Positions 35,933-63,214 are shown, numbered from the stretch's first letter. The stretch is 64,000 bases of DNA from a virus (IMGVR_UViG_3300044729_002678:97619-161618); one strand, 5' to 3'. Notes: a model not told the origin generated them from the letters alone. Numbers and translations are program-made.

Positions 35933-36056
35933 GTAGTCAGGACAGGATTCGAACCTGTATGTGGTATATTTCTCTGTTTATTTTCTCTCATCCATTAGGA
36001 TATTGAGCCACATCGTTAAACAATAAATCGTGCGTCTACCATTCCGCCACCTGACT
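35933..36056 (-). repeat. tRNA-Leu-like scaffold repeat, copy 1
   Basis: AGTCAGGTGGCGGAATGGTAGACGC-[~73 nt variable]-ACAGGTTCGAATCCTGTCCTGACTA. Confidence 0.85.
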
Positions 36057-36210
36057 AATTTAGTAATTCATCTGTTGAGTATCCAGTCAACATTAAACAC
36101 TTAATTTCCGTTTTTAGCATTCTAAAAAATATCAAAAATGCTCTTCTACTAGGTCTTTTCCAAAACAATTTCCAAATATAATTTAATGTTCTAAACATAT
36201 CTTTAATTTT

Positions 36211-36325
36211 GTAGTCAGGACAGGACTCGAACCTGCATGTGGACCTTGTGTGTATTTCAACTATATTGCGGTTTGTTCCACTCCGTTTCACTATTCGGGG
36301 CGTCTACCAATTTCGCCACCTGACT
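36211..36325 (-). repeat. tRNA-like scaffold repeat, copy 2
   Basis: Same constant ends, different insert. Confidence 0.85.
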
Positions 36326-36326
36326 A

Positions 36327-36884
36327 TTATTTTTCTATCTCTTTGTTATATTTTATTTTAAGTCCTAATTCTTCTAAACCTTTATCATGACAATCTTTTA
36401 CTGCTTTCATTCCATGCTTGGTAGCAATTGTTTCAAGTACCCTAGCATGATAAGCTTCTTCTGGTTCAATAACCTTAAACAACTCAACCAAATCCTTTGG
36501 TGTATTAGGATCGTTTATGATAACTCTCATGCGTTTAAGTGATAGAGTTTCAGCATAAGCACCAATAGCAGCAGCGGTGCTACAATCAATTACACACGGA
36601 AGTGTGTTTCGCCAATACCTTCCATCTTTGGTAGATTTGATAAATAAAGTAATGTTTCTATCCTTTAGGATTTTTTCAACCAATACCGAATGTTGTGCTT
36701 CTTGTTCAGCTATTCTCCTAAAGATAACATACGCTTGCATATCATTTTTACAATAGGTGTCAGCAAAATTGATGAAACGTTCTTCAGCATCTTTCTCATT
36801 GTTATATAAACCAACAAGCCAGTGTTCAAGTTTTTCTTTATTATTTAAACAATCATTCCACCACTTTTTTGTTATTTTTAACAT
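36327..36884 (-). CDS. Ferritin-like diiron protein
   Basis: Two ExxH motifs (EQEAQH, EEAYH); likely start 36884. Confidence 0.7.
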   Translation of the reverse strand: MLKITKKWWNDCLNNKEKLEHWLVGLYNNEKDAEERFINFADTYCKNDMQAYVIFRRIAEQEAQHSVLVEKILKDRNITLFIKSTKDGRYWRNTLPCVIDCSTAAAIGAYAETLSLKRMRVIINDPNTPKDLVELFKVIEPEEAYHARVLETIATKHGMKAVKDCHDKGLEELGLKIKYNKEIEK

Positions 36885-36900
36885 AACATTATTTTTTTTA

Positions 36901-37023
36901 GTAGTCAGGACAGGATTCGAACCTGTACGATGCATTTCTCTTGCACCTCGGAATTAATGGCCTCACGAAATTAATTATTTCGTTAGCTTACTTGCTGCGT
37001 CTATCCAATTTCGCCACCTGACT
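36901..37023 (-). repeat. tRNA-like scaffold repeat, copy 3
   Basis: Same constant ends, multi-hairpin insert. Confidence 0.85.
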
Positions 37024-37155
37024 GTTTGTTTACATCTCTAAATCAAACACATACGCTATAATAATATAGGAGATAAGGAAAATACCTATAATTGTTAATA
37101 TAATTGGTCTCAATATTTTTACACTTACTAATTTTTCCATATTTTTTAATTTTTA

Positions 37156-37253
37156 GTAGTCAGGACAGGATTCGAACCTGCGTATGAGAGACTCATCTAT
37201 ACCTTTTTACCGATGCAGACTAACCCTTTGCGTTACCAATTCGCCACCTGACT
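37156..37253 (-). repeat. tRNA-like scaffold repeat, copy 4
   Basis: Same constant ends. Confidence 0.85.
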
Positions 37254-37254
37254 A

Positions 37255-37534
37255 TGTTTCCCTATCCTGAGATTCCAGACGGGTAGATTTTAACGGGTTT
37301 CTCTCACTGTTCGAGAACCATATCTCCCTCTATTATTTGGCAACCTAAAAGATTAACCATTCAAAAAGTGGGCCTTTTTCATTAGTGTCTTACCACATAA
37401 AAACCTGTCAACACTACTGGGAGGAGGTGTGTCGCTCTCCTTTATTCCCATGCCGTCCCACTCACGCTGACTGACGGTCTGCGGGTCTATTGTTTAAGTC
37501 TTAGACCAAAGACTCTGAGCACCTCTTACTCATT
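37255..37534 (-). ncRNA. Unidentified ~280 nt structured RNA in the tRNA cluster
   Basis: GC-richer, ORF-free, several hairpins; 3' hairpin with GGAAUCUCA loop. Confidence 0.45.
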
Positions 37535-37640
37535 GTCCATTCTGTTGGATTCGAACCAACTTACTCGTCTTACATTCGGATTAGCGCTAACCAGGCGATG
37601 TAAGAGTCAAAGTGTTTTAACCACATAACACTAAGAATGG
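37535..37640 (-). ncRNA. tRNA-like RNA with extended anticodon arm
   Basis: CCATTCT/AGAATGG acceptor, GTGTT/AACAC D-stem, canonical T-arm, long central stem CTTACAT/ATGTAAG. Confidence 0.6.
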
Positions 37641-37731
37641 AGGATTAGAAGCTTGGGATTTTCACCCTCGAACATCTTCATTGATACGTCTATCAATTAG
37701 ATTGAAACGCGTATTGCGACACTTCTAATTT

Positions 37732-37806: not shown

Positions 37807-37810
37807 ATTT

Positions 37811-37884: not shown

Positions 37885-37889
37885 GAATT

Positions 37890-37963: not shown

Positions 37964-37967
37964 GTTT

Positions 37968-39454: not shown

Positions 39455-39528
39455 GTGACCCCGAGCAGGATCGAACTGCTACTCCCCTGATTAAAAGTCA
39501 GGTGCTTTACCAATTAAGCTACGAGGTC
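39455..39528 (-). tRNA. tRNA-Lys(TTT)
   Basis: Loop CTTTTAA; 5' end overlaps the last codons of the HNH ORF. Confidence 0.9.
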
Positions 39529-40131
39529 ATATTCTTTTTTCAATCTATGACATCTATTATAGTTTCCACCTTTGGGAGTTAATCCAACAAAAATCAAAGA
39601 TTGTCTGAAATTCCATTTATTAATCAACAATGATTCTAACAAAGTTTCATCGGTAACTTTCATTTTTCTTTCTTTTTTATTTCTACCTCTCCATGTAGAA
39701 GTAATTGAATGGCAGTTAGGACATAACATTTCTAAATTATCTCTATTGTTGTTAAAGTGATTACCATCTTTATGCTCTAATTCTAAAACTAAAGTGGTGT
39801 TTAACCACTCACTCAATCCACATTTATTACATTTTTCTTCCTGTTCATAAAGTATTCTAAACCTGAGAGATTGAAAACTAAGTTCAGAGTATTCTGATTG
39901 TAATATTTGGTTTTTATGATTTTCTTTTCTTATATTTCCAATCTTAATCCAAAAACTACTAGGTCTATTGGAGTTTGATTTTTTAACTTTTTCAGAGTTT
40001 TTTGCAGATTTAGATTTTTTTAACTTATCAGATTCTGTCCAATTTCTACTATTTCTGCAAGATAACGAGCAATAATTAACTAAACCTCTAGATGGTTCAA
40101 ATTCATTTCCACATTTTTTACATTTTTTCAT
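39514..40131 (-). mobile_element. Free-standing HNH homing endonuclease inserted in tRNA-Lys
   Basis: CKKC...CSLSC N-terminus; CNKC...LELEHKDGNHFNNNRDNLEMLCPNCH; the tRNA-Lys 5' 22 nt is duplicated at 40195-40216. Confidence 0.88.
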
Positions 40132-40495: not shown

Positions 40496-40592
40496 GTAGT
40501 CAGGACAGGATTCGAACCTGTAATTAGGATTATTTAATCGGGCTCCATACCGTACCTACCTTTCGATGCGTCTACCATTTCGCCACCTGACT
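40496..40592 (-). repeat. tRNA-like scaffold repeat, copy 5
   Basis: Same constant ends. Confidence 0.85.
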
Positions 40593-40798: not shown

Positions 40799-40899
40799 TT
40801 GACTAATATGGATTCGAACCATAATCCCCCGCCCCAGATTTCAGCCTCAGATATTTACCTACTTTCAAGGGGCAGTGTGCTCCATTACACCATAGCCAA
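40799..40899 (-). ncRNA. tRNA-like RNA with ~33 nt loop in the anticodon arm
   Basis: TTGGCTA/TAGTCAA acceptor, CTGCCCC/GGGGCGG stem, TATGG-TTCGAAT-CCATA T-arm. Confidence 0.55.
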
Positions 40900-40947: not shown

Positions 40948-41048
40948 GTAGTCAGGACAGGATTCGAACCTGTATGTGGTAATCCTTTCAGATATTTCTC
41001 ACTTACGTTTTTGCCGTATTAGCGTCTAACCAATTCCGCCACCTGACT
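40948..41048 (-). repeat. tRNA-like scaffold repeat, copy 6 (insert identical to copy 11)
   Basis: Same constant ends. Confidence 0.85.
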
Positions 41049-41144: not shown

Positions 41145-41261
41145 TGGTAGTCAGGACAGGATTCGAACCTGTATGAAATCATCTTTGGGTACATAAATGT
41201 ATTTCTACATTCAAGCTGACTTCTCACTTTGTTAGCGTCTAACCAATTCCGCCACCTGACT
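41145..41261 (-). repeat. tRNA-like scaffold repeat, copy 7 (encoded ACCA end)
   Basis: Ends ...CCTGACTACCA. Confidence 0.85.
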
Positions 41262-41676: not shown

Positions 41677-41763
41677 GTAGTCAGTACAGGATTCGAACCT
41701 GCAATTTGCAACCTTAATGATGGTAAAGGATTCGGCTAGCCATGCCTCATTACACTACTGACT
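41677..41763 (-). repeat. tRNA-like scaffold repeat, copy 8 (divergent D-arm)
   Basis: AGTCAGT...GCAGGTTCGAATCCTGTACTGACTA. Confidence 0.7.
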
Positions 41764-42040: not shown

Positions 42041-42787
42041 TTATAGGCCTAATCTTTTTAAATAAGCGGGACCATATACATCATAGGTACATCCTTCAAC
42101 AACATTACCACGCGGAATAGGAGCGGGAGCACGCCACGATGCAGCTTTCATCAAATCCGCCCTACGATATGGTTTACCATTTAGTTCACCATCCTTTCGG
42201 GCGATAAATCCCCATACACTACCATTCACATCAATTTTGTAAAACTTAGAACCCTTTGTTAATTTGATTACAGGCTCATTTAAGGATTGAAACCTTTCTT
42301 TATAATATCCCTTTAATTGTCCAGTCAAAATTTCCATAAAATCTTCAATAGTTTGACATGGGGGGGATGTTAATTGCGTAACTGATGTCATATTTTTTTA
42401 GGATTATTTGTTATACATTTTAACCATATTAACACTCACTTTATAAGTCTTACCACCACGAGTAACCAATACAGGTGATTTGGTAGATTTAGGTTTCCAA
42501 CCCGAAATCACATACTCATTACCCTGTAAGATGATTGTTTGACCAAGATTAAAGCCTGGTAATTGATATTTACCATAAGTATTAAAAGCGGATGCCTCTT
42601 TAGTCATAACCACCCCATTAGAAGCTTTAACAGCAGCTTGAACCTTATAAGTTACATTGTTTGAGGTAAAGGTAGCATTACCAACGGAAAGCTGAATACC
42701 ATATTTGGATGATACGGCGCTTAGGGCTGCGTTAATATCATCACGAAGATTCTTAACGGCGGCCCTGTCAAAAGATGTAATTTTCAT
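42041..42787 (-). other. Two early hypothetical ORFs (42041-42391, 42404-42787)
   Basis: Downstream of the repeated promoter at 42806. Confidence 0.55.
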
Positions 42788-42980
42788 AGTGTTTGTTTTT
42801 TTAACTTACATAGTAAAGATAAGGAAGAAATAGCAAATATCCAAGCTTTTTATGTTAAATTATCGTTAAATTTATCCACATTTTGGGTTAAAACTGTCCA
42901 ATAAATTGGACACTTATTCAATATTTCATTTCATTTTGGTTAGGGTTTAACATTTTGGTGGTGTCAACGAAATGGTATAA

Positions 42981-46091
<3,111 letters not shown>

Positions 46092-47451
46092 AAACACTAA
46101 AAGACAAATGGCTCACCATCTATTTTTGCCTCACCGACAGAAATAATGCAGTCGCTTAGTTCAATATTTAAAAGTGGATTAGCCATTCTTATGTCGCTTC
46201 TTGCTCCAAATCTGTATTCTAACCACTCCACAATATCTACATCATCAGGGTTGCCGTTAAATTCTTTTGGCATTTCAATTTTTACATCTTTTAAATTTAG
46301 TTTTGACATTTTAATTAGTTTTTATAGTTTCAAACAACCGATACCTCCCACACGAATCGGTCAGGGTCTTGACTTGAGGCCCGAATCCGTTGGAGCGGGA
46401 TAGCACATACTCGCAGGCGTTACCCTTGGCCCGCACCTCAATCACCTTCCAAGGGCGGTCGTTGGTGCAAGCGGTCAGCAGGAGCAGAAGTAGGAATGGT
46501 CTCATAACTTAATTTTTTAGTTTTTTAATTATTACATAGTAAAGATAGGGATAAAACCCCATATTTCCAAGCTTTCTGTATTAAATTTAGGTTAAATTTA
46601 TTCATTTTCCATATCAATCCAATCCACATCACCATCTTCCATCATATTATTATCTTCCAATAGTGTCCAATACCGCTCTTTCCACCTATCTAATTCAACA
46701 CCATCTATGAGTTGAACTTGTCCCGTTTTTTTGGCAAGATATGCAATACCCCAATTAAGTATTTCTTCGGCCTGGTTTAGTAAACCATCTTCCAACATTA
46801 CCAATACCCGTTTATAATTTTCGGTTATGGTATCTAATTTTTTTGGTTTTCTTCCTCGCTTTTTCATATGTATAAAATTTTATCGGTATAAAGTAACAAT
46901 TGACCCAAAATTAGAGTCAAATACCCTAATCAAATTTTCGTAATCACCACTCATCATTTCGTTTACGATTTCTTTGGAATTAAATCCCAATTGTTTGGAA
47001 AGATTTTGAGCAAGACCAATGAGATAAAATGCATTTCCCTGCGGCCCTGTTAAATCAACTTCAATAGCTGAATTTTTTACTTTTTGCTTAATAGCCATAA
47101 CTTTTATTTTTAGTTTTTTAATTATTACATAGTAAAGATAGGTATAAAACCCCACTTTTCCAAGCTTTCTGTATTAAATTTAGGTTAAATTTTATGCTTT
47201 CCAAAGGTGTAATAATCTTGAGCCTCATCATCGGCACTCATTTTCATTTCATCATCAATCCTATCACTATATTTTATCTCATTAAAGATAACGGCTATCT
47301 TGTTCTTATCTTCTTGTGTGGCATGCCCACTATCTTCAAAAATAATAAGTAACTCACAAGCACTATTTAATAATCGTTTTAAGGTTTCGCTGGTCGTTTC
47401 GCTGGTCATCGTCTGTTGGTTTATTGGTTGAACAAAAGTCTTTGATGGTAG

Positions 47452-47946
47452 TTATGGTATTAGTTTGTATTTACGTCCGTTGTGTTCAATGATTTCGGGG
47501 GGGCGGTTGTCAATAATTGCACCAACTGAATCCTCAAAGTAGATGACATCGCCATTTGAATCAAATTCAGATTTAAACCAATATCCACTTGAATCTTCAC
47601 CATAGAAACGATAGTCATTTTTGTCCATAATTTCAAGGTTGCCATTGGCCTCAAAGTCCCAGTTCAGCCATTGGCCGATTGTTTGTCCGTCTTTCATGGT
47701 TAGGGTATTAGTTGATATTTTTTGCCGTTGTGTTCGATGATTTGAGGGGATGCGGTTGTCAACAATATTACCGCCTGAATTTTTAAAGTAGATAACATCG
47801 CCATTTGAATCAAATTCGGATTTAAACCAATATCCTTTTGAAGTTTCATGGTATATATCGTCGCCATTCTTGTCTTTAATTTTAAGGCTGCCATTGGTCT
47901 TGAAATTCCAGTTCAGCCATTGGCCGAGTGTTTGTCCGTCTTTCAT
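47452..47946 (-). CDS. Tandem paralog pair (MKDGQT.GQWLNW.F) fused by a frameshift
   Basis: Two ~80 aa repeats; the native C-terminus of the first copy lies in another frame. Confidence 0.65.
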   Translation of the reverse strand: MKDGQTLGQWLNWNFKTNGSLKIKDKNGDDIYHETSKGYWFKSEFDSNGDVIYFKNSGGNIVDNRIPSNHRTQRQKISTNTLTMKDGQTIGQWLNWDFEANGNLEIMDKNDYRFYGEDSSGYWFKSEFDSNGDVIYFEDSVGAIIDNRPPEIIEHNGRKYKLIP

Positions 47947-47950
47947 AGGT

Positions 47951-48274
47951 TTAGTGTTTAGTTTCTTCAATTAGTTCTCCGTCTTTCCAATGACGGGTTT
48001 TGGTAATGTTTCCCTGTTCATCAAATTCCTCCTCAATTCCATCCGCCTTACCTTCTTTGTATGGGGTTCTCCAATGGATTTTTCCGTTTTCATAGAACAT
48101 CTCCTCAATTCCATCCTCCTTACCTCCTTTGTATGAGGTTCTCAAATGGATGTTTCCGTTTTCATAGAACCACTCCCAAATACCTTCTTCTTGCTCTTTT
48201 GAGTTTAGTTGTCCTTTGACCCATATATTTCCGTTGGGGTAATATTCAATGTAGGGTGTGAGTTCGTTGGTCAT
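47951..48274 (-). CDS. MORN-variant repeat protein, paralog C
   Basis: 3' ~150 nt identical to paralog A. Confidence 0.8.
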   Translation of the reverse strand: MTNELTPYIEYYPNGNIWVKGQLNSKEQEEGIWEWFYENGNIHLRTSYKGGKEDGIEEMFYENGKIHWRTPYKEGKADGIEEEFDEQGNITKTRHWKDGELIEETKH

Positions 48275-48654
48275 AGGTTTAGTGTTTAGATTGTTATGTG
48301 CCATTTTAGTGAACACAATTCCGAAGATTCCACTCTTGAAGGTCAATGTACTTATCATAGGTACACTCTTGACCACTTTCAATCTCATAAATTTGATTAT
48401 CAAAAGCGTCTATTTTATCTTGTTTTACAATCCATTCTTTATACTCGTCAAGAGTGTTGAAGCCAAACATTTGACCTTTCTGATTATTTACTACTATTAT
48501 CATAATTTTTGAATTAATTTGGTTTATTGGTTGAACAAAAGTGCGTAAATGAATCTGCCGAAGAAAATTACACTAAGCACTACTGCTAACGTTGTAAATC
48601 CATACTCAAGTATAGTTACAACTAAATGGTTATTGGTTTTTGGTTTCATAACTT

Positions 48655-49209
48655 TTATTTAGAAGCGGATTGAATTATACTAAATGCTTTACTAACCACT
48701 TTTTGGTCAGATACATATTTTACAGTATCATTGAATTCCCTACCCACATTTACCACCTCATTCACCACCCATTCAACTTTACCAAATGGAGCCCGATTAT
48801 CAACAAACACATACTTAACCGAAGCTTCCAACACCATACCCGTCAAACCACAAACCGAACCTGAAGTTTCATAACTCTCATAGATATCATGCATACCATT
48901 GAATGTACCATACTCCCAAAGGTGGGCAAATTTTTCTACCTCATAAGCAATTTGTGAATCAACGGGAGCACCCATTTTAGTGTAAAGATTAACCCGAAGA
49001 GAATTACCACCAGAGAAAGAGTCCGATTTTACCGAACACATAACCCCATTATAATTCATTTTAACAAACTGCTTTACCAATGAACCTGCGATTGGTGCAT
49101 TGATATGAACATATTTTACGCCGGAATTTGACCCGTAGGTTTTAGTACGGAGGGCTGTGGTGGGAACTTCAAAGTTCTGACCATTAATTTGGATTACCAT
49201 TTTTTTCAT
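48655..49209 (-). CDS. LPD29-like (polyvalent protein-associated) domain protein
   Basis: SVKSDSFSGGNSLRV...GTFNGMHDIYE. Confidence 0.55.
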   Translation of the reverse strand: MKKMVIQINGQNFEVPTTALRTKTYGSNSGVKYVHINAPIAGSLVKQFVKMNYNGVMCSVKSDSFSGGNSLRVNLYTKMGAPVDSQIAYEVEKFAHLWEYGTFNGMHDIYESYETSGSVCGLTGMVLEASVKYVFVDNRAPFGKVEWVVNEVVNVGREFNDTVKYVSDQKVVSKAFSIIQSASK

Positions 49210-49287
49210 AATGTTTGTTTTTTTAACTTACATAGTAAAGATAGGGATAAAACCCCATATTTCCAAGCTTTCAATATTAAATTTGCG

Positions 49288-49656: not shown

Positions 49657-51260
49657 CTTTTATTGCTCGTTCAAAGGGTTAGTTTCGATTAATAAGTTGT
49701 CAAGTACGGTCATGAAAGGAAATTCTGTGTAGTATTCAACTCCGGCAACAGTTCGAATCGATTTTATTCCTCCTAAATACAGTACAGTTTCTAATGTCAA
49801 ATGATACATAAAATATTTTTCTTCTAACTCTTTAACAACTTTGGCGATTGTGTTGGGGTAATGAACGGCTTTTTTATGCAAAGCATAAACCACTTCAGGT
49901 TTTAAACGGGAATAAAGATTTTTCATATATTATTTTTATTTTTAGTTTCTCAATTATTACATAGTAAAGATAGGGATAAAACCCCATATTTCCAAGCTTT
50001 CAATATTAAATTATCGTTAAATTTTGGAGGAGGGGGGTATTGGTCCAAACGAAAAAAAACACCAATACCCAATCCTCAACCATCTATTATACCAATGATG
50101 CCATACACTCTTTAGCGTATGTGGACAAATACGGGTAATGGAGAGCAATCTTCAGCGTATGTGGAAGATGAACTCATAATCATACCATCTGTCTCTACCT
50201 CTACCATATACTCACTCCATACCCGGCGTGCCTCTTCGTGCAAATGCGCAAGTTCCTGTGAAGAGGAATATTCGAGCTGATAAGTGGTTTCGGGCTCGGT
50301 GGTGTTGGGGAAATCTCCGGTGGGGAAATAAACTCTGAAAGTAGCAATCATAAAAGGGGGGTTTAGTTTCTCAATCATTACATAGTAAATATAGGCATAA
50401 AACCCCATATTTCCAAGCTTTTTCCCCAAAAGTTATCCACATTTTACAAAAAAAAAGTGTCCAATTTAGTGGACACTTTCATATAGAGTATTTGGTATTG
50501 TTTTACTTCCAATCAATTTTAGGGCAGTATTTGTGATACTTTGCTTTCACCATCTCAACGATGATATTGTCTGTCTTTTCAGTATTACTATTCTTTGATT
50601 GCAAGTGTTCTTTTGTTTTAATAATAGCCCAAGTAATGCCAACTATGATAAGGGAAGTCCAAACACAAAAACCAAAAACTATCATTACCATAAGTAATGA
50701 ATCCTCATCAGGGATGTAAAAGAAAAGACTCAATGTTGAAATCGTGCAAATAATAGCAGCGATAAAGAACCAATAAACAAACGATGTTCCGAGCATATCA
50801 CCGTATGTGTCCCGACGACTACGTTTGTAGTTGATGATTTCATAAGGTAGGGTATAAATTGCAAACAAAGGTGAAAGAATCACCGCAGTAACCAGTTTCC
50901 AAAAGTAAGGACACAGGTTGGTGGGCATTGTGTCGGTTTTATAGAACCAACGATAGAGTTTTGCCGAGAGTGAGTTTTGATTTAGTTTCATTTGTTTTTA
51001 TTATTTTATTTTCACGGTAGACCTAATGGTTCCATTTATCTCTACCCTAATATCTAGCACATTTGTAGAATCCACCACTATGTATCGACATCCGTCAACA
51101 CTATACACAATGCCTTTTGGGTATTTCTTTTGAAGCATCTCCTTATCTTGAGAAACAGTGGTGGCATTACAACTTACCAATAATACACCGATGCTGAAAA
51201 TTGCAATTAACTTTTTCATGTCTTTTGTTTAGTTTGTTTAGTTTTGTTTTAAATTGTTTA

Positions 51261-51369
51261 GTAGTCAGTACAGGATTCGAACCTGTAAGGAAGGAGGATT
51301 ACTATTAAATCTAACAAATGTTACCAAGTTTAGATTCCTCAATGCGTCTACCAATTCCGCCACCTGACT
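51261..51369 (-). repeat. tRNA-like scaffold repeat, copy 9
   Basis: Same constant ends; outside the tRNA cluster. Confidence 0.85.
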
Positions 51370-51375
51370 GTTTGA

Positions 51376-51558
51376 TTATTCAATGTACGACCATTTAATA
51401 ATATGTTTCTCTTCACATACATCATTATACGAAGGTATGTACCATTCATCATTTTCATAATAGCAAACCTCATATTTCGGTACGTTCTTCAAAGAACTTT
51501 GAATTAGTACCCAACTACCATCTTTTGGTTTTCCATTTTTAATTTCAACCCATTCCAT
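51376..51558 (-). CDS. DUF551-like small protein between scaffold copies 9 and 10
   Basis: MEWVEIKNGKP...IIKW pattern. Confidence 0.55.
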   Translation of the reverse strand: MEWVEIKNGKPKDGSWVLIQSSLKNVPKYEVCYYENDEWYIPSYNDVCEEKHIIKWSYIE

Positions 51559-51573
51559 ATTCTTTAATTTTTA

Positions 51574-51657
51574 GTTGTCAGTACAGGATTCGAACCTATA
51601 TGAACTTTCATTCTCGGGAAGGTTTCCCTAGCGTCTATCCAATTCCGCCACCTGACT
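51574..51657 (-). repeat. tRNA-like scaffold repeat, copy 10
   Basis: Short ~30 nt insert. Confidence 0.8.
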
Positions 51658-51748
51658 GTGTTTCATATCTCTTTATCTTACATAGTAAATATAAGGATAA
51701 AACCCCACATTTCCAATCTTTTTATGTTAAATTATCGTTAAATTAATT

Positions 51749-52936
51749 TCACGACTTCTTGGTTGGGATTAGCACCGTTGCGTTATCGTCTTTCACGAGT
51801 TCCCAGTTGTAAGTGGGTGAAAGGTAGAACGAGCGTTTATCTAGTTCCTGATTGTCTGAATTTCTGATTTGTATAAAATCATTCTTAAGTCCCAAAGATT
51901 TACAAACATCCGCTGAAACAACTCTTTGCCCGGGTTTATTGGCGTGCTCAGAGAAGTCAAAATACTTGCTATCCTCAGGGAAGCAGTTGGGGTGGTTCTT
52001 CTTGATTTTTGGTTTCCATCCTCCACAAGCCATATCGTGCAGTCCACGGATGGCTTCTACAGTAGTAGTTCCATCCAACTTGAAGTGTTCTGTAAGGTAT
52101 TCCTTTTGTGGGGTAGTGGCTGCGTTGTAGTACTCGTTGAGTAACTCACGGGAGATTCGAATTGATTTTGACATGGTTGTTTGGGTTGGGTTTGTGATTT
52201 GACGGAATTGTTCAAGGGAGATTTCTACAAATTGAGGATAATCGGCAATACAATTTTTGATGTCTCCAGCATAGTACTTGCTTTCGTCCTTCGGATGCTC
52301 GGACATTAGAGTGTATCCAACCTGAAAATGGAAATCTGTGTCTGCATTTTCCTCCCACCATGCTTTGAGTTCTTTAAAGTTTTCTTCCGTGGCTTCAATG
52401 CACCAGTGTTCAGGGTGTTTCATGGGTTGTGAGTTTGTGATTTCACGGAATTGTTCGAGGGTGATTTCTTGGTAGTGACATTTTAGAAAGTTTCCAAAGT
52501 CCGAAAAAAAGTAAGTACCGTCGTATGGGTGTTCAGACACAAGGAATGAGCCTGGTACAAACTTGTCGTCCCATTTTGACGCTTTACTCGTTCTTTTGCT
52601 CAACCTCCAACGATTGAGTTCTGCGTGGTTTTCTTTGGTTACGGGGATGTACCATTTTTCGGGGTGTTTCATAGGTTTTGGGTTTGTGATTTCACGGAAT
52701 TGTTCAAGGGTTATTTTTTGGTAGGATGGATACCTTGCGGTAAAACCTTTTTCGGAGCCACACCAATAATAACTTGAGTCTGTTGGGTGCTCTGAAAGTA
52801 GGAAGGCGCCTTCTCTTAGGCGGGTGTCTGGGTCCTTTGTCCATCTGCTTTTTAAGGCTTGCTTTCGCCACCACGTTTGGAGTTCTGCGCGGTTCTCTTG
52901 GGTAACAGGTATGTACCATTTTTTTAGGTGTGTCAT
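51749..52936 (-). CDS. Protein with three tandem ~85 aa repeats plus a C-terminal domain
   Basis: M.H...W.I..T.EN..EL...I.LEQFR.ITN three times. Confidence 0.75.
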   Translation of the reverse strand: MTHLKKWYIPVTQENRAELQTWWRKQALKSRWTKDPDTRLREGAFLLSEHPTDSSYYWCGSEKGFTARYPSYQKITLEQFREITNPKPMKHPEKWYIPVTKENHAELNRWRLSKRTSKASKWDDKFVPGSFLVSEHPYDGTYFFSDFGNFLKCHYQEITLEQFREITNSQPMKHPEHWCIEATEENFKELKAWWEENADTDFHFQVGYTLMSEHPKDESKYYAGDIKNCIADYPQFVEISLEQFRQITNPTQTTMSKSIRISRELLNEYYNAATTPQKEYLTEHFKLDGTTTVEAIRGLHDMACGGWKPKIKKNHPNCFPEDSKYFDFSEHANKPGQRVVSADVCKSLGLKNDFIQIRNSDNQELDKRSFYLSPTYNWELVKDDNATVLIPTKKS

Positions 52937-54879
52937 TCGTTTTTTAGTTTTATATTCAAAAAGGATTGGTGATTTGACGTGTTAGAATTTTTGAATCTTT
53001 TTCTGGACGAGATTCGATGTCCAATGAAATGGACTTGCCGTAGCATTTAGCAACGATGATGTCATCGCCGTAGCTGTCTTTTTCAACGGCAAACCTTACA
53101 AACCCAGCGCCTTCGCATTTTTCATTATAACCAACCATGTCTTTGTGTTGGATTGCCGCGGAAAAGATGATTCCACTCCCTTCAACGATTACGTATTTTG
53201 CTTCGTACATTTTTATATACTATTTAACTCCAACCATCAAAGTATATACATCACATTCCATCAACCTAAACATATCTTTAGGGAACACACTTTTCAAATC
53301 GGTAGTATCAAAGTACTCATTTTCGTAAATGGGTAATGATAGTTTGGTGTCTTTACGCATGGTGTGTCTTTCGACCCACTCATTAACATCGACTACCAAC
53401 ATGTAATTTCCGTTTCTTAACATAGCTTTTATTTTTAATATGATTAAATATACGAACGAATTTTATGGTGTTAAGATTGAAATGATCAAAACTAACAAGA
53501 TTGAATAAAGTATAAAAGTTATACCAAACCCTACTATAATTCCATCAAAATATGTTTTTTCTTTTTTCATGTTTTGTTATTTTATTAAACTTTAAATTTC
53601 CAATTCGCCAACCACCACTTATTATAGGCAAGGGTGGTGATATATACCAACCCAAATAATGCCAATACGGTAATGGTTTTCAATACTACAATATAGATTG
53701 CGAGTAAATTGAGGATATCTGATAGAATTTCCATATTATTTACAGTTTTGTTCTTTGGTGGAGTAAAGGTTGACAAGATAATTAAACTTTTCAACAGCCT
53801 CAAATACCGAGCAGGTAACTGCTTTAAGGAGCATGGATGATTTTAGTTCGCTGAACATAATGGTATCATTTGATAGTTCAATCGAGAGGTTCAATTTTGG
53901 GAAGGTTTTTTTCATACTGTTTGTTTTTTTAACTTACATAGTAAAGATAAGGATAAAACCCCATATTTCCAAGCTTTCAATATTAAATTTGCGTTAAGTT
54001 TTTCTCAATAATGAGACGAACCCGTTCCCTATCAACGGAATCAAATTCAATGTCGCTTAATGGTATGCTTTCCAAATACTCATTACAGGCGGCAATAATC
54101 CCCTTTTTTGTAGTAAGTGGGTAAATACCATTACGCAACTCATAAAAAGTTATACAATATTTGTAAAACTCTTTGATTAAAACTGAATATTTTTTCATAT
54201 CTCTTTTTGTTACATAATAAAGATACTACAAAAACCCCATATTTCCAAGCTTTTTCCCCAAAAGTTATCCACATTTTACAAAAAAAAAGTGTCCAATTTA
54301 GTGGACAGTTCTTATTGACCTTGGGTTTGCAAATCTATAATCCCCAAAGCCTCACTTATAACGGAAACAATTCGATATGGAATTATTTTATTTATTATCT
54401 ACTCAAAAATGATAGTTGAACTTCTTTTAAAAGTTTCCTACCCAATTTTTTATCATTACGAAAGGTATATTTGTTTTTTACACTCATAAGTGTATTAGCC
54501 CTCACCAACTTTTCGATTTCAGTTTCGTTATAGCCAATACTTTCCCATGTCGCAATTAATTTACTTTCAACCCTCTGAAGTTGTTCACTAATATCATTTT
54601 CGATATGAGATTGGTTTATCTTAAAAAAGATATTACCACGTCTTATTTTATCCCGAAAAGAATTACCCATCCCAAATATACAAAAGTTTTGGTAAATCTG
54701 CCTACGTTGGTTATAATCCATACCTACCATTTCTTTTTCCATAATTTCTAATGTTTCTTCGAAACTGTACCTTTTATTATTTGCACACATAATTTTATTG
54801 TTTAATATTTTTTATTTAGTTAGTTATTACAAATATACGAAGTAAATTTTGTTTTTCCAAATCCTTATAGAAAAATTTA

Positions 54880-57800
54880 CTACTCATATTTGAGGACGTT
54901 AGTCCCAATTCATAGGAAGACAGTCATGAGAAGGTACATCATAGAATTTTTCACCTGTTTCAATATTTTGTAGTGTATAGTATCGTGTACCTATCCTATA
55001 AGGTGCATAAGTTGACAAAATTTTATGAACCTTATGCCTATATCGTATTAAATCATCACTAACATCAGATATATGTAATTTTTCATTACTATTATCCAAG
55101 TTTTGTTCTAAATTTTTATCTTCTTCTGTATCACCATCTACCGTTCCTTGTAAAAAGGATAAGTATTTTATCTTTTCAATTTCTTTATCAGTATAAAACC
55201 TACCACTAACACCAAATAAACCCAATAAAAGGTTTTGTGCTTGGTTTTCAGTTATCAGTTCTAACCTAAGTTTTTCTGCTATTTCTAAAATTTGTTCTTT
55301 CATATCTTTTACTGTGTTTATTTGTGAACCGTTAGCGGTAATACTAATAACCCAACAAATACATCTTTCTACCCCAAGCTTTTTTTGCTTCTTGTTCATT
55401 ACCACCATAAACAATCTGATACCAATCCACCCACATTTGAGGCTGGGCAACTGGATTTGGTTCAGATGAAGCACTACCGCTAACAGCAGGTTGCTTCAAT
55501 GGCTTAGTTTCTTTCTTTTTTGACATTTTATCATTTATTTAAAGTTTGTAATCCTACACAAATACAACATACTGGTGGAATATAAGTGGATGTAAACTTC
55601 ACAAATAAACGAGTTAGTTGCAATTTTTCTTACACCACATAATCTTGCTGCCTTTTCGCAAATGAACTAATCGTAATTCATAACCTTTATCCATCATTTG
55701 TTGCATTTCTTCTAATTCTTTAAGTTCTACATCATTGAAAGAGCGTTCATTTACTCCATCCTTAATCTTAATGTAGTTCTTAGCAAAATCATAAAAACTG
55801 CAACTAACATCGTGTAGTGCTTGTTTAATTTCATCACTAATTTCTTCATCTGTTTTTTTAACATTTTTCTTTTTCATATTCTATATTTTTTAATTTGTAA
55901 AACAATAATTTAACTAAACCTAACAAATGATAAACAACATTAAAACGATTGTTTATCATCGGACGTTATGTGTAATTTAATCAACTTTGTATTTCCTACC
56001 ACCTAAGTGATGTTCGTGTATAAACTTTGATTTACATCTTGAACATTCATACTTACTATGATAATTACTTTTCCAAATCAAAGTTTTCTTATGTATTCCA
56101 ATTAAACACAATAAACTACACATAACATCAGATATATGTAATTTTTCATTACTCTTATCCAAGTTTTGTTCTAAATTTTTATATTTTTCCATCTTATTAA
56201 TTTTTTACCTTGTGTTCTATATATATTTCTCTGTACATCTTATATTGTTTCCCGTAAAAATCAACCAAGAAAAAATTCCAATTATCATTACCATTTCTAC
56301 CTATTAACATTGCGTGTATATTTTGTAGTTTATAATACATCATAGCCACCTTACCATAATTGTCGGGATTATTTTTTAATTCATCAATCTCGTCCAATCT
56401 TTTTTCTAATTCAGTTTTAGGTATAATCAACCTCATAAACTTTAAAAAATAATCCCTAATTTTTTCTTTTGTTTTCATAATTCAAAAATTAATACTAAAA
56501 TATAACAAGGTATATGTGAAATACCTCATAAAGTTTCTACTAATTATTTAAGTTCTGTGGTAAGGTACTTCACATATACCCAACCGTTAGTGGTAATTTT
56601 AATCTTTGTATCTTCTCCATACCGCAGAACCATCAATACCATCTTTCCACATTCCTTCGTCATTTTCCTTAACAGTTTTGAAGAATTCTTTAACTAAATC
56701 CAACACTTCTTTTTTATCCATTTTTACACCTTCGTAATATACATCATCTCTTTGATTTCTGAAGAATTCTTCAAAACGATTAAAACTACCACTAACATCA
56801 GATATATGTAATTTTTTATTACTTTTATCTAAGTTTTGTTCTAATTTTTTATCTTCTTCCATTTTGTTGAATTTTATGTTAAAACTACATATATCTGAGT
56901 ATCGTTATAAACAATAAAAAACCTTAAAGTGGTGGTTCTAAATTGTCTTTTATCTTATCATAAGATTCTTTAATCGCTTCGGATAATACTTGTTCGATAG
57001 GTTTTTTACTATTTATAACAACGGATATATGAAATAAAAAATTAATAGATTCTACAAACTTTCTAATTTCTTCTTCTGATTTACATTCTCGTTGAACAAC
57101 ACAAAATTCACCCCTAACTACTTTACAAGTTTGGGTTTCTATGTTGTAATAAAGTATTGGTAATCTACAAGGGTTTCCACATATCTCTGTATCTTCTTCA
57201 CCTAAAACCCAAACTTGTTTTCCAGTGAATACATCAAGTATCTCACTAAAACCTAATTCTGTTAAATTTTGTGTTGTTATCATCGTTCTGATTATTAATT
57301 TTTTACATTCATATATCCGCAGCCGTTATGTGTAATTTATTCAAAAATAATCACGTTTAAGTTGTTCCTCTTTAATTAGAATCTCCCTTTGTTCTTTCAT
57401 TTGACCAATTACTTCATCGAAATTTTTACTCATTTGTCTTTCAAACTGATTTTCATTTTGGTAATCTAATGACACTTCGTGTTTAACATCAAATCCGTTT
57501 TCTCGTAAAAATTTCTTCAATAAGAAAATTAAACGTGATTTTCCACTCATTGCTCTACCAGATACGGTAATAATTAATTTTTCCTTTTCCATTTTATATT
57601 TGTTTTGAGTTTAATATAATTAAATATAAGAAATAAATTTTGATTTTCCAAATTTTTTATCAGGTTAACTTAAACCTACACAAATACAACATACTGGTGG
57701 GATATAAGTGGGTGTAAACTTCACAAATAAACGAGTTATAAGTAATATTATTTTTTAATTGGTTTCTTCTTGTTCTTTTTAGGTTTTTTACATTCATCAA

Positions 57801-59930
57801 GTTTAGTCCCAGCCACATATTCAGCCATTTCGGGTTCATTATTAAGAAACCAATTTATTCGGTTTATTTTTTGTTCTTGTGTTAATTCTATATTCATTTT
57901 TATTAAATTTATTTTGTTAAAAAAATAATACATACACATAACAAAGTGTATAAGTAATGTGGCTAATAAAGTTTATCTGTAAGTTATGTGTAATGTTACT
58001 CACCATTATACTTAAATTCAAACAACTTTGGTTTTAATGTATTACCAATTGGTTGAACGATTGATAAATCACTTGATGTTTCTCCGTGAATAACTTTCAT
58101 TAAACCAGGTATTCCATAATTCTCAAATGTTATTTCATACAAATCGCCAAAAAATGATGTATCATTATTACTAATTGTATGTGTTACTTCTATAACATAC
58201 TTTTTTGTAGTTATCAATGATTGTTGTAAATTAATAAACCAAAGTTGTGTTCCACTTGGTATCACATACTTATCTCCAATTTTTACTTTTTTCATATTTC
58301 ATTTCTTTAATTTTAACTTTTTAAAATTTGTGAGTTCATTACTCCATCAATATCCAAGAAAATAACTTTTTGCACAGGTTTTGGATTTAACTAATGGTTC
58401 TTTCAAAAACAATGAGATAACCTCCTCTTAGATGACTGCCACCACCTGTTGATATATGTCGTGCTGTTACAGATACAATCAACCAACCATCTTCCAAGAT
58501 TTTATCTATTTTGTCTTGAACATCTTTGTAAGATTCATCATCAGGAGTCACCAATACTTTTTGTTCTTTAAGTGCTATCATATTATTTTTAATTTAATCG
58601 TTCAAAGATATGACCTACAAACTCACCCCTCTGATACTGGTAGAGTATAAGTGGGTGTAAACTTCACAAATAAGCGAGTTAGCAGCAATGCTATGACTGC
58701 AAGCCAACACCATATCGTTTAAACCCATATTTCGTAAGTGTATAGTATTCTCCGTGTTCATTCACCCATTGATTAGGTCTTACTTCAATTAATCCTATTA
58801 GCCTTGCAAGTGCATCATATAAAGCACTGCTGCTAACATCGTATTGCTGAACATTGCCAGCTTCATCGGTAATTTCAACTTTTACTTTCATATCAATATT
58901 TATTTTTATTAAACATTTGTCTTTCAATTTAACTTAATACTACACAAATACAACATACTGGTAGCGTATAAGTGGGTGCAAACTTCACAAATAAGCGAGT
59001 TAGCAGCCATAATCAGAACAGACCGTTTCAAAGTCGTTCATAACAGCATCTAACAATTCCCATTTATCAGGATTACAACTTGTTGAACCTACCAGCAAAA
59101 ATTGAATTGCTATATCGTGTTCAGTTGTATGTTGACCTTTTTCGGCAAATCTTAATCTTTCTGATTTAAGTGCCTCAATCAATTTTTGTTTTCTTTCTTC
59201 GTTCATATTTTTAGTATTAAATTTTACAAAATTACGGCTGCTAACACACGTTTGGCGAAAGTGGCGGTTCAGTGCTCCGCAGACACATTTGTGGTTAATC
59301 AAACATTGGTTCTCCGCATCGGCTTTTGTGGTGAAAATCGCCACCTTCGCCGAGCGTGGGAACATTATGTGCAAGGCTACAATTCGTACTTTGAATAAAA
59401 GGCAACCTCACCATCATTTACCCATTGGTCAATTAAGTCGCTAACATCATTAATGTATTGTTCATTTTTACCTGCTAATTTAGTTGCTTTTAGATTTTCC
59501 CAAAATTCACCACTAAATTCATCCATATTATTCATGTAGTGAACAACAATTTCAAGTTTCTCTTTTAAGTTTTCCATTTCGTATTTAAATTAAATTTTGT
59601 GGTTAATGAAAAGTCAGTGCATTTAAGCCTCCACTGACAGCAAGCGGCAAAACGTTAGTGATAATAAAAATTAAATCAATCCTTGTTTCTTTAACATATT
59701 TACGATTGCCTTTGCTGCTGCCTTAACTGAATCAGGGTCTGTTTCCATATCACCCTCTTTCATAGAATAAGGCACATATCGTAAATATACTTCACTATCA
59801 ATTATATCTTTAATCATATCAATAAGTTCTTGCTCATTTTTACTATCACTAACATCAGATATATTCAAGTTTTCTTGATGTTCATTGAGACTTTGTATGT
59901 GTTTTAAATCTTTCATCTTCGTAAATTAGT
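54880..59930. mobile_element. attC-like gene-cassette array II
   Basis: Full hairpins at 55205-55337, 55919-55971, 56501-56592, 56791-56910, 57014-57331, 59240-59370; additional cores at 54898, 55613, 57735, 57983, 58678, 58999, 59654. Confidence 0.75.
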
Positions 59931-60202
59931 TTTTAGCTAAACTAAGAATATAATCAGCATCATTTTGTGTTGATATTTTCCCCTTTATTAGTAATTTATC
60001 ATAACCTGTATAAAGTTCCCATTTATCATCATACAACAAAACATAATGTTCTCCGTTTGATTTATAACCCCCAACATATGCCCCCTTTTTTAATACGATT
60101 AATTTTTTCATATTCATTTTTTTAACTTACATAGTAAAGATACAACAGAAAACCCATATTTCCAAGCTTTCAATATTAAATTATCGTTAAATTTATCCAC
60201 AT

Positions 60203-60703
60203 TTATTTACACACCAAATGCCTCTTTACCTTTTTCTTTACTACACCCCCCACAATAATATCATAATCCTTATTATCCATCACCCAGTCCAAATCAATCG
60301 TTGTAGCATAGTACGAACCCGAAGATGAAGATTTCCAATCCCCCTTCAGTAAACTCGTCCACATAAAAAACCACTTTATCCCACCACCACTATCATCGTA
60401 TGATACTAAAAGATAATCCGAAGCACGCTTTGAATACTCACCACCCCTCCAAATATGGGTAGTTTTTGAGGTCTTAATCTCCAATGGAATACCACCAACC
60501 ACCAAATCCGGTTCGGAATCCAGACGGGGCGAAACGCATTGCGGAACAACTTTGGCAAACGAAGCCTCCAATATATTCGATATCAACTCCGATTTTAATT
60601 TCGTTGATAGTGAATCGTAATCCACTAACCCCCTAAATGTATAAAACCGATTGGTGGCCTCCCCCACCACATCATTAATCCATAATCGTATCGTTTCGTT
60701 CAT
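60203..60703 (-). CDS. PD-(D/E)XK nuclease, restriction-endonuclease-like
   Basis: SEPDLVVGGIPLEIKTS. Confidence 0.6.
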   Translation of the reverse strand: MNETIRLWINDVVGEATNRFYTFRGLVDYDSLSTKLKSELISNILEASFAKVVPQCVSPRLDSEPDLVVGGIPLEIKTSKTTHIWRGGEYSKRASDYLLVSYDDSGGGIKWFFMWTSLLKGDWKSSSSGSYYATTIDLDWVMDNKDYDIIVGGVVKKKVKRHLVCK

Positions 60704-61654
60704 TCTTTACTAAATATTATTTGTTTTGATTATTATGAGTGCGATTATCATAGGTGCGCTTATCAAGGGAAAATAGTGCTTATCGTATGTTCAAGGGGAG
60801 AAGCTATGGTCGAAAACCTGACCTCTCGATGGGGATGAGTCCCCTCCCATAACACAACATAAATTATTTTCGTGCTTACACTAAAATGCCTGCCCCCCCC
60901 TGTCTTATAACATAACCCTTCTCACTAACACCATTCGGATTTTTTTTACCAAACTAGCCTCCTTCAGGCCTACCACTTTTTGGGTTGTGTTATATTTGAG
61001 TTGAGCTATATTTGGTTACAGCCCTTTCCACTTTTTGGAATTCGCAACTGCTCCCATCCTCATATACTCCATTCTACACCATTCCGTTGGTGATATATCG
61101 GATTGTGTGATACGCATGATATTTGGGTTGTGTTCTAACCCTAATACTTTTGGGTTACTATCTACAGGTTTATAGATAAAGTCATGTGGGGAGAATGCTT
61201 TTTTACTATTTTGCGTTTTTTTGTTGAAAAGGTTTAACATAGGTGTTATTTTTTATTGCTGATATTTTTTTTGTTTATTTCATCCAAAATCCGGACTGCT
61301 TCATCCTCATACACCCAACCGTTAGGCACAATACTAAGACTGTACCCATTCACAATCAAATTCTTGACAAAGATTTATAAATGCTTGTTTTTCACTTCCA
61401 CATTCGTTGATGTATTTTTCAGAAACACAACCAAAATCACCACCATTTCTTGTCCACTCAATACCATACTTAGTTCTTTCAATCCAACAAATGTGTTTCC
61501 CTCTTTTATCAGCATCATCAATAAAACAGATAGGTTTCTGTTTGTCAAGAATTAAACTATAAAGTTGTTCGTAATCTTTAGATAATTTATACATACTATC
61601 GTATTGCTTCAAATCGCTTAATTTAATTTCGTTTTTCATATTATTTAATTTTTT

Positions 61655-61755
61655 GCAGTCAGGACAGGATTCGAACCTGTATGTGGTAATCCTTTCAGAT
61701 ATTTCTCACTTACGTTTTTGCCGTATTAGCGTCTAACCAATTCCGCCACCTGACT
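61655..61755 (-). repeat. tRNA-like scaffold repeat, copy 11
   Basis: Identical to copy 6 except discriminator G. Confidence 0.85.
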
Positions 61756-61987
61756 AAAATTTGTTAAGGCCATTTTAAATCGGGTGACTTATTGTCATCT
61801 TGAAACTCCCAATAAGTATCACCAAGTATTTGATCCACCTCGTCTGATGTATTTTCAAATGCGTCAAAAATAACTTGCATCACTTCCTTTTCGGTTACAT
61901 TTAGAATTTTAGCAATTCCAATAATGTGGTCTTCTAATGGTAAATCTCTCATTTCGTTTTAAAATTAATCCGGTTTATAATTGTTTT

Positions 61988-62091
61988 GCAGTCAGGACAG
62001 GATTCGAACCTGCAAAGTATGGTGAGTTCATCCGTTGTACCCATACCTTTAACATTACTACTCAAGCGTCTAACCATTCCGCCACCTGACT
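61988..62091 (-). repeat. tRNA-like scaffold repeat, copy 12
   Basis: Same constant ends, discriminator G. Confidence 0.85.
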
Positions 62092-62145
62092 ATAAATGAA
62101 GGTTCCATACTTAGTCTTTGCGGGAAGTCACCTCCAACCCACCTC

Positions 62146-62244
62146 GTAGTCAGGACAGGATTCGAACCTGTAAGTACCGACTGGGCTTATTTCTGTTTTA
62201 AATGCATCGCCTGTCCAGTGCGTCTACCATAACGCCACCTGACT
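62146..62244 (-). repeat. tRNA-like scaffold repeat, copy 13
   Basis: Same constant ends. Confidence 0.85.
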
Positions 62245-63133
62245 ATGTTTACTCTTTAATCAATTTTTTATACGCCTTATCAGTTCCAAGACCCATCATA
62301 TCAATATTTTTTCCTTGGTCGTACCATTCAGTTTTAATCCAGTTGTCATCATGATACCAAGTTTCCCAACCATTTTCACGAAGTAATTTAGATTTTTCTT
62401 CGTAGTTTTCAATTTCGTGTTTTTGTTTTAATAGTGCCATGTATTTTATATTTGTAGTCAGTATTCGATTAACTTTTTACGTAATTCATCATTTCAACCA
62501 TTTCACAACAAATAAATGAAATAATTTTTAATAATGAACAAAGTTGAACTCGTCATTCAAATCAACAAAATATCCATTATCCTGTGCATTTTTAACTATT
62601 TCCATAATATCCTTTGTTTGTGCATACCATCTTTCATAAGAATTAATATCACCATTCAATACTTTATCTGTTCCTGGAATCATAACTGCCTCATCATTAT
62701 CAATTGTGTTTGCAGTTTCTCCATCAATTAAAAATGCACAAATATCACCATCAGCATCAGTTAGTTTAACTAAATATGCATTCTTATTTTGTTGATTTTC
62801 ATTCACTTTTTCGTTAAAATTAAGTATGGGTTTCATAGTCGTTTTTTATTTGTTTTGCTTTTAGTTGATTTGATTTGCAGTCAGGACAGGAATCGATTAA
62901 CTTTTTACGTAATTCATCATTTCCACCATTTTCTGAATCAACAATTCCATTTCATCTTTGTTAAGATACAACTTACCATTCAATGTTTTATCGTCCAACT
63001 CTTTTGTTTCAACTATAATGCCATCAAACTCATCTGTCGGATAAATGCTTACGTTTTGTTCTTCAGTTGCAATAACTGTTTTGTTCCAAACTTTGTTTTT
63101 CATTTGTTTTGTTTTTAATTTGTTAATTTGTTT

Positions 63134-63214
63134 GTAGTCAGTACAGGATTCGAACCCGTAATATCAGCTTGCTTATTAGGCTTGCTTCTGCGCTACCAAT
63201 TCCGCCACCTGACT
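63134..63214 (-). repeat. tRNA-like scaffold repeat, copy 14
   Basis: Short insert. Confidence 0.8.

Follow-up and report, generated by a model that had tools for sequence, protein, structure and literature searches.

The terminal 64 kb of a 161,618-bp linear virus record in IMG/VR (IMGVR_UViG_3300044729_002678; this 64,000-nt stretch, analysed at its full length, is the window of what follows) contains 14 elements on its minus strand, 13 full and one diverged, in each of which a near-invariant body resembling tRNA-Leu, here termed the chassis, encloses an insert of variable sequence, its cargo. The comparative evidence makes it probable, though by no means certain, that the elements encode small RNAs of class II tRNA-Leu shape without an anticodon, which would be processed as tRNAs are and would act as carriers of variable cargo. 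The chassis, comprising a 7-bp acceptor stem, a Leu-type D arm and a T arm, is shown by its pattern of substitution to be under selection at the RNA level, and the cargos, when followed from phage to phage, are discrete, conserved and structured units that are portable between phages. Processing by the tRNA machinery, and the carrier role of the chassis, are what we infer.

The elements and the wider family

The elements were located by pattern searches and direct reading, and all 14 are matched, at 46-84 bits (E <= 1.6e-8), by a covariance model (R1) built from 60 elements in which pairs are specified only for the acceptor, D and T stems; the R1 search of the window gave no copy beyond these (Table 1). 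An earlier note on this DNA had listed 14 minus-strand positions, and pattern search and R1 place an element at every one, the copy given there as 41145 in fact starting at 41148. The near-invariant acceptor stem, Leu-type D arm and T arm that it described as common to the copies were likewise recovered by R1 and direct reading, as were its single copy with an encoded CCA (41148-41261) and its two copies with G73 (61656 and 61989). Exact-pattern copies in the whole 161.6-kb record number 12, all of them within the window and none outside it, and a 13-nt T-arm motif occurs 31 times at <=2 mismatches versus 0.79 expected, a count that includes real tRNAs. In every copy the 5' arm consists of an acceptor strand, U8 and the Leu-type D arm, and the 3' arm of the T arm, an acceptor strand and the discriminator, which is A73 in 12 of the 14 copies and G73 in two; the middles between the arms range from 29 to 72 nt in the window.

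The record has an estimated completeness of 84%, nearly all genes of the window lie on the minus strand, and 28 canonical tRNAs are found between 31.3 and 41.3 kb (ARAGORN and Rfam, window). The host is very probably a freshwater Bacteroidota bacterium, since one open reading frame (ORF) of the window bears a Bacteroidota type-9 secretion sorting tail and since the metagenome-assembled genome (MAG) contigs that share elements mostly belong to Bacteroidota groups.

The exact 23-nt 3' arm is present in at least 120 viral contigs. Among the genomes of 185,579 species it occurs in only 18 stretches, all of them MAG contigs (mostly Chitinophagia, Flavobacterium, Sediminibacterium and Saprospirales) and none a canonical tRNA, and there was no blastn match in 50,697 records of cultured phages. 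The family considered below was collected as matches to this exact arm and comprises, among the matches listed, 206 full elements from ~140 contigs, including a minimal form of 57-75 nt; L-numbers denote sequences of other phages or loci carrying chassis elements or related blocks. A published description of the chassis family was not found in full-text literature searches, and the family is described neither in a recent preprint that deals with tRNA mimics of bacteria nor in a survey covering 10,006 candidate structured RNAs of viruses.

RNA-level selection on the chassis

When folded freely, 12 of the 13 full copies form both the acceptor stem and the T arm, the exception being 63135-63214, and 11 of the 13 form the D arm; family folds with the acceptor and T stems imposed have the same layout as the free folds. 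The family alignment (A1) shows hardly any variation in the acceptor and T stems, and its members had been chosen by their 3' arm, so a test for substitution bias was used in place of covariation. Among 200 distinct elements, which are not phylogenetically independent, 66 of 87 changed acceptor/T-stem pairs are still paired, versus 17% expected (p ~ 8e-34). Transitions in these stems are pair-keeping in 61 cases and pair-breaking in three, and five pairs have changed on both sides. The pair-keeping bias is large, and it is seen at many stem positions. The D stem has outright compensatory variants across the family, and in the window element 8, diverged yet complete, has U7:A66 as its seventh acceptor pair in place of G7:C66, both sides having changed. 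The features conserved are those of the body of canonical tRNA-Leu (RF00005), i.e. the three arms, with U8, A14 and G18G19, the T loop TTCGAAT (86% of family elements) and A73; the chassis elements differ from it in having no anticodon stem-loop.

The cargos

The 206 full elements fall into 172 cargo clusters. In the window the cargos are mutually unrelated, save for the one shared by elements 6 and 11, and on free folding each forms one to three idiosyncratic hairpins between the constant arms. Among members of a cargo cluster, stem changes covary around unaltered loops; L021 and L058, for example, differ by three both-sided changes in a single 6-bp helix around an unchanged 9-nt loop. Two of the window cargos recur in other phages, inside chassis with different flanks and D loops: that of element 2 is identical in L152 and has a few substitutions in L033, L153 and L154, with different flanks, and that of element 6 is found in L149 and L150 with another D loop. 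It is because the stems covary around fixed loops, and because cargos recur elsewhere with different flanks, that we regard the cargos as discrete conserved units.

The motif GAAATA, which the earlier note had reported from about half of the inserts, is indeed present in seven of the 14 in the window versus 0.6 expected, where its occurrence coincides in part with a CCACAT 3' strand common to the cargos concerned, but is only weakly enriched family-wide (16 of 206 versus 7.6 expected). A nested T-arm-like hairpin occurs in five of 189 cargos versus 0.3 expected. Two of the roles suggested earlier found no support. The longest matches of the cargos to the phage's own transcripts, at 10-14 nt, are no better than those of shuffled sequences (mean ~11, maximum 16), which argues against antisense guides directed at those transcripts. 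Hairpins resembling an anticodon stem-loop, as a decoy for anticodon nucleases would have, are if anything depleted (four of 189 cargos versus 7.8 in shuffles, and none of the 14 in the window). What stands of the proposed 'tRNA-scaffolded RNA display system' is, therefore, a selected family of tRNA-Leu-shaped scaffolds with variable structured inserts, shorn of the nuclease-decoy and own-transcript-antisense roles and of the mobile-repeat role considered below.

Exchange at the constant arms

Comparison with related phages indicates that the arms also matter at the DNA level. Blocks of the window recur in L020 as a mosaic, in changed order and at 91-99% identity, and the block ends match arm-cargo junctions to within a couple of bases; L020 also has the orthologue of element 7 (L020 2407-2517). 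The cargo of element 5 is also present there (2582-2681, 97% identical), adjoining tRNA-Gln with other flanks, at a place where the window has another cargo. In L038, by contrast, the ORF downstream of element 14 is kept at 75% identity and the cargo is different. After an orthologous ORF, L097 has a full element (10642-10735) where the window keeps only a 3'-arm remnant (62873-62893). Within the window, elements 6 and 11 are identical apart from the discriminator and have unrelated flanks. From the breakpoints at the junctions, the cargo swaps in the same and in different contexts and the arm remnant, the pattern is clear that the constant arms behave as crossover points for the exchange of cargos and modules; homologous recombination would be the mechanism.

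Freestanding HNH and GIY-YIG endonuclease genes are present near elements in the window and in about 10 loci, and could promote arm-based exchange. One HNH-type endonuclease-like ORF (39514-40131, minus strand) lies inside the tRNA cluster, as in the tRNA regions of T5 and T4, and could target conserved tRNA or chassis DNA.

Genomic context and proposed processing

Across the family the elements are co-oriented with flanking ORFs (76:6 upstream, 77:13 downstream), and only four of 206 overlap an ORF. In the window the upstream ORF stops 0-8 nt before the 5' end of the element and the next ATG follows 16-42 nt after its 3' end; eight of the 14 copies lie in the region of the tRNA cluster (31.3-41.8 kb), some of them directly abutting a tRNA at tRNA-like spacing. 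Of the family elements, 94% have a pyrimidine at position -1 and 98% a C at position 74, which the search pattern did not cover; CCA is encoded in 3%. The 28 real tRNAs of the phage show the same flank signature (a pyrimidine at -1, C74, CCA not encoded). These flanks are most simply read as marking the elements out as pre-tRNAs to the RNase P and 3'-end enzymes of the host. Documented substrates of RNase P include tmRNA, 4.5S RNA, the phage M3 and C4 RNAs and polycistronic mRNAs (PMC11143913). The phage's own record contains no CCA-adding enzyme, RtcB or Ro60.

In the scheme that we propose, host RNase P would cut the 5' end of the element, and host 3'-end enzymes and the CCA-adding enzyme would finish its 3' end, so that a stable RNA of tRNA shape would be freed from a polycistronic early or tRNA transcript; the neighbouring mRNAs would be parted by these same cuts. 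The chassis would supply processing, folding, stability and possibly leucylation, every published determinant for leucyl-tRNA synthetase (LeuRS) being kept. The cargo hairpins would be the working part, probably binding a protein or RNA partner, and the ~26-nt constant arms would be the homologous crossover points at which cargos, together with intervening gene modules, are exchanged among related phages.

With respect to leucylation, the LeuRS identity positions are well kept in the family (U8 97%, A14 87%, GG 91%, A73 90%). The anticodon arm is dispensable for leucylation by bacterial LeuRS (PMC2377443), and the argument of the earlier note, that this enzyme largely ignores the anticodon, agrees both with that work and with the conserved chassis positions. 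Charging with leucine is possible, since the chassis keeps A73, U8-A14, G18G19 and the T loop; the G73 copies, which make up about 8% of the family and include two in the window, argue against its being universal.

Alternative explanations

It is barely credible that the elements are intron-bearing, or otherwise unusual, tRNA-Leu genes that take part in decoding. In favour of this, 10 of the 14 copies pass the Rfam tRNA threshold and nine receive a call from ARAGORN in intron mode. However, the Rfam alignments skip the middle (as in that of element 1, 35934..36056, at 38.3 bits), five copies have no intron-mode call, and the identities assigned to the other nine contradict one another (Ile-AAU, Phe-AAA, His-AUG, Ser-GGA and others), with 'introns' at non-canonical sites, even within the anticodon. 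Splicing that restores an ordinary tRNA-Leu, a case that the earlier note had itself raised, was tested and is rejected on the inconsistency of these forced calls. No RtcB is encoded in the phage record, and the cargos are without anticodon-loop geometry: as the note had observed, none of the 14 window middles contains a 5-bp stem with an NUNNNRN loop. The sole default call of ARAGORN, Ile-AAU at 63135, was discarded, the stem having three of five pairs and the loop not being conserved in the relative L035. The phage's own ordinary tRNA-Leu genes carry different acceptor stems, and no cellular or phage decoding tRNA with the acceptor stem of the chassis was found, the 18 bacterial-MAG matches all being non-canonical. 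Nor do the elements look like decayed tRNAs, as had already been argued, given that stems stay paired when changed and that the cargos have compensatory changes and are conserved and portable. On the sequence evidence, then, they are neither decayed tRNAs nor intron-bearing tRNA-Leu genes. A tmRNA was also considered and rejected, none being called by ARAGORN, pair 3:70 being U:A rather than G3:U70, and Rfam giving only tRNA. Bacterial and phage Y RNAs, the partners of the Ro60/Rsr ring protein, contain a tRNA-like module; an assignment to this type (Y RNA/YrlA) is nevertheless highly improbable, because the 84%-complete record has no TROVE/Ro60 gene, control genomes being matched correctly by the same search, and because the ends of the element RNA form an acceptor stem and not a Ro-binding stem.

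The remaining alternatives each explain a part of the observations. The elements might be purely cis-acting punctuation, in which the tRNA shape serves only to bring RNase P and 3'-end enzymes to polycistronic early transcripts, so that these are cut between genes, in the manner of mitochondrial tRNA punctuation, and the released RNA with its cargo has no function. The tight placement between genes on the coding strand, the flank signature shared with real pre-tRNAs, the cleavage of polycistronic mRNAs by RNase P (PMC11143913) and the want of a shared cargo motif or partner all fit such a role. We consider it unlikely, though, as it leaves unexplained that cargos are unchanged across phages while the flanks differ, and that cargo stems change in compensation around conserved loops; moreover, the 57-75-nt minimal form implies that cargos of 30-130 nt are not needed for cutting, and eight copies lie in the tRNA cluster, some abutting a tRNA, where real tRNAs already give cut sites. 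Alternatively, the arms could belong to a selfish DNA repeat or recombination module, being kept by concerted evolution or as targets of homing endonucleases, a frequent presence in the tRNA regions of phages, with the RNA fold an inherited relic. The breakpoints at the arms, the cargo swaps, the gain and loss of elements, the solo arm, the identical elements at two unrelated window sites and the HNH/GIY-YIG genes nearby would all follow. Such an origin is nonetheless very improbable, as a DNA-level function cannot explain the strong bias of stem substitutions towards RNA pairing through G-U; strand and position relative to genes are non-random, and neither convincing target-site duplications nor a transposase was seen. 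On similar grounds, an element of the miniature inverted-repeat transposable or short interspersed (SINE-like) kind was rejected, with one cargo-sharing pair in 14, no convincing target-site duplications and no transposase or reverse transcriptase among the frequent neighbours. The retro-mobile, SINE-like repeat suggested in the earlier note gives way to what was seen instead, exchange of cargos and flanks at constant arms and gain or loss at orthologous sites, which fits homologous recombination and not retroposition. A third possibility is that the elements are chargeable tRNA mimics, which are leucylated or bind LeuRS, EF-Tu or the CCA-adding enzyme, and so either donate leucine to a non-ribosomal transferase or serve as sponges or decoys, the targets being tRNA-binding host factors or defences. 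The full LeuRS identity set in the chassis, the dispensability of the anticodon arm (PMC2377443) and the conserved C74 speak for this. We think it quite unlikely in view of the G73 copies, the cargos that are hypervariable and yet conserved, which it does not explain, the lack of anticodon-stem-loop mimics for anticodon nucleases, and the failure to find a transferase next to the elements.

Several observations weigh against our preferred reading, that of tRNA-processed carriers of cargo. As the family was fished with an exact 3' arm, ascertainment accounts in part for how little the acceptor and T stems vary between contigs, although it does not touch the sharing of the chassis by 14 copies within a single genome. 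The stem-change counts carry the phylogenetic non-independence noted above, and the chassis is not perfect even in the window, where G7/A66 is mismatched in three copies, with additional mismatches in copy 51575. For Aquifex LeuRS, the change from A73 to G73 cuts charging about 140-fold (PMC2377443), and with two window copies having G73, leucylation cannot be essential for all copies. With regard to the cargos, no dominant k-mer is common to them across the family, Rfam in sensitive mode matched only tRNA on the elements and no known RNA family within the cargos, and no partner protein was found beside the elements, the best neighbour cluster being present in 15 of ~139 loci (frequent neighbours are DUF932, terminase, SegE-like GIY-YIG and T5orf172 proteins). 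Since neither a shared motif nor an RNA family nor a partner protein was found, the role given to the cargos is without positive support.

A bolder form of the carrier proposal, which we put forward tentatively and regard as doubtful, is that the family constitutes a natural tRNA-scaffold library, in which one chassis displays hundreds of structured RNA effectors directed at host factors or defences (decoys, sponges or aptamers, for instance), with the arms serving as cassette-exchange sites of an integron-like pool of accessory RNA. If the released RNAs are functional, they would represent a large unannotated class of phage small RNAs, with at least 172 cargo types in ~140 contigs, built on a principle that biotechnologists have reinvented as the 'tRNA scaffold'; they would add an RNA layer to the phage accessory genome, and the stable tRNA-like RNAs of T4 and T5 would acquire a purpose. 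The constant arms, for their part, have the appearance of recombination linkers, of a new kind, by which mosaicism is shaped in the large freshwater phages of Bacteroidota.

Relation to known RNAs

The closest known RNAs are RNA1 and RNA2 of phage T5 (T5s03, 30501-30644, and T5s06, 32959-33083; annotated in NC_005859 as misc_RNA, 'tRNA-like stable RNA with unknown functions'), and the chassis family is a variant of this phage 'tRNA-like stable RNA' kind. Both T5 RNAs are encoded on the coding strand of the phage tRNA gene region and have acceptor, D and T arms, no anticodon loop and a structured middle of ~80 nt; RNA1 has a Leu-type D arm, and the T arm of RNA2 is identical to that of the chassis. 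There is, however, no specific homology, the R1 scores being 23.1 and 23.3 bits compared with 33 bits for ordinary T5 tRNAs, and each has its own acceptor stem, unlike that of the chassis. For T5, moreover, no shared multi-copy chassis, dispersal among ORFs or exchange of cargos is described. Species 1 (rnaC) and species 2 (rnaD) of T4 are also stable small RNAs, encoded at the end of the T4 tRNA cluster. Of these, rnaC, with a tRNA-type T arm and an acceptor-like closing stem, is a looser analogue, lacking a D arm and having an imperfect acceptor stem, such that R1 gives 23 bits for a part only; rnaD has no T arm and no R1 match and is not an analogue. Both are single copies and do not form a variable-cargo family.

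In the 'tRNA scaffold' of Ponchon and Dardel, a foreign structured RNA reportedly replaces the anticodon arm, and tRNA-processing enzymes mature and stabilise the chimera. These constructs are man-made and are said to use tRNA-Lys or tRNA-Met bodies, with the anticodon stem kept as a closing helix; by contrast, many of the phage cargos are two or three hairpins without a closing stem. A DNA-level parallel is offered by the T4-type PeSL 'mobile regulatory cassettes' and the lambdoid boundary sequences, which are short and conserved intergenic repeats in hyperplastic regions of phage genomes, where recombination shuffles gene modules. Those repeats are promoter or stem-loop DNA signals, whereas in the chassis family the repeat is the two halves of a tRNA body that is selected at the RNA level and carries a variable cargo of its own between them.

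Coordinates and neighbouring features

Table 1. Chassis elements of the window and other tRNA-like features
Feature	Position	Strand	R1 (bits)	Remarks
Element 1	35934..36056	-	76.9	length to A73 123 nt, cargo 72 nt; 9 nt upstream of tRNA-Pro
Element 2	36212..36325	-	74.3	begins 1 nt past the stop of the rubrerythrin/MiaE-like ORF
Element 3	36902..37023	-	73.4	71-nt cargo
Element 4	37157..37253	-	65.7	Rfam tRNA 47.4 bits
Element 5	40497..40592	-	83.8	
Element 6	40949..41048	-	83.9	same cargo as element 11
Element 7	41148..41261	-	78.8	sole copy encoding CCA; 10 nt downstream of tRNA-Gln
Element 8	41678..41763	-	46.5	diverged D arm
Element 9	51262..51369	-	77.7	6 nt from the preceding ORF stop and 42 nt from the following ATG
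Element 10	51575..51657	-	59.1	slightly degenerate, A1/A72 mismatch; directly downstream of a D1 copy
Element 11	61656..61755	-	81.7	G73; same cargo as element 6
Element 12	61989..62091	-	71.0	G73
Element 13	62147..62244	-	74.4	5-bp closing helix and ~30-nt loop at the anticodon-arm position
Element 14	63135..63214	-	63.2	shortest cargo, 29 nt; orthologues in L035 and L046
Solo 3'-arm remnant (15th piece)	~62873-62893	-		just past the stop of ORF 62897-63103
Other anticodon-less tRNA-like element	37536..37640	-		CCATTCT-type acceptor stem; from an acceptor-agnostic scan
Third tRNA-like element, also anticodon-less	40799..40898	-		own acceptor stem; 6-bp stem with 31-nt loop; Rfam tRNA 29.5 bits
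Giant-extra-arm tRNA-like class	L022 587-742			
Giant-extra-arm tRNA-like class	L050 5302-5469			
Giant-extra-arm tRNA-like class	L063 12256-12431			
Giant-extra-arm tRNA-like class	L103 836-992			

The tRNA-like element at 37536..37640 has an orthologue in L020 (841-945) with a compensatory change in the T stem. The class with a giant extra arm, found in related phages and conserved among them, is separate from the chassis family; its members are ~156-176 nt long and have a GUC anticodon-like loop and G73.

Elements of the chassis family are liable to distort annotation, in that tRNA finders miss them or call odd tRNAs (Ile-AAU here) and ORF callers extend frames into them. The product of the 202-aa ORF between elements 2 and 3 (36327-36935, minus strand) is a rubrerythrin/ferritin-like di-iron protein, which matches the tRNA hydroxylase MiaE below threshold. 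The first ATG of this ORF falls within element 3, and translation probably starts instead at an ATG ~17 nt after the element. Two gaps between neighbouring chassis elements are occupied by micro-ORFs on the minus strand (37030-37141 and 36057-36198, ~37 and 46 codons), one of which has a stop codon that overlaps the first bases of element 1. Further along, in the region of small ORFs, a gene for an Rv2179c-like 3'-5' exoribonuclease (44440-45003, minus strand) is present, the product of which could trim RNA 3' ends.

Two families of intergenic repeats accompany the small ORFs. The D1 repeat, of ~96 nt, is present in 10 copies in 42778-60194 (e.g. 49200-49295, 53906-54001 and 51650-51745), upstream of small minus-strand ORFs, and resembles a repeated early promoter cassette of Bacteroidota type; the copy at 51650-51745 is directly upstream of element 10 (51575-51657), and its usual leader and ATG run into the element. 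The second family (D3/D5/D6, ~30-90 nt) lies between small ORFs at 42984-46094 and 55587-59017 and consists of a GC-rich, hairpin-like part followed by a conserved core.

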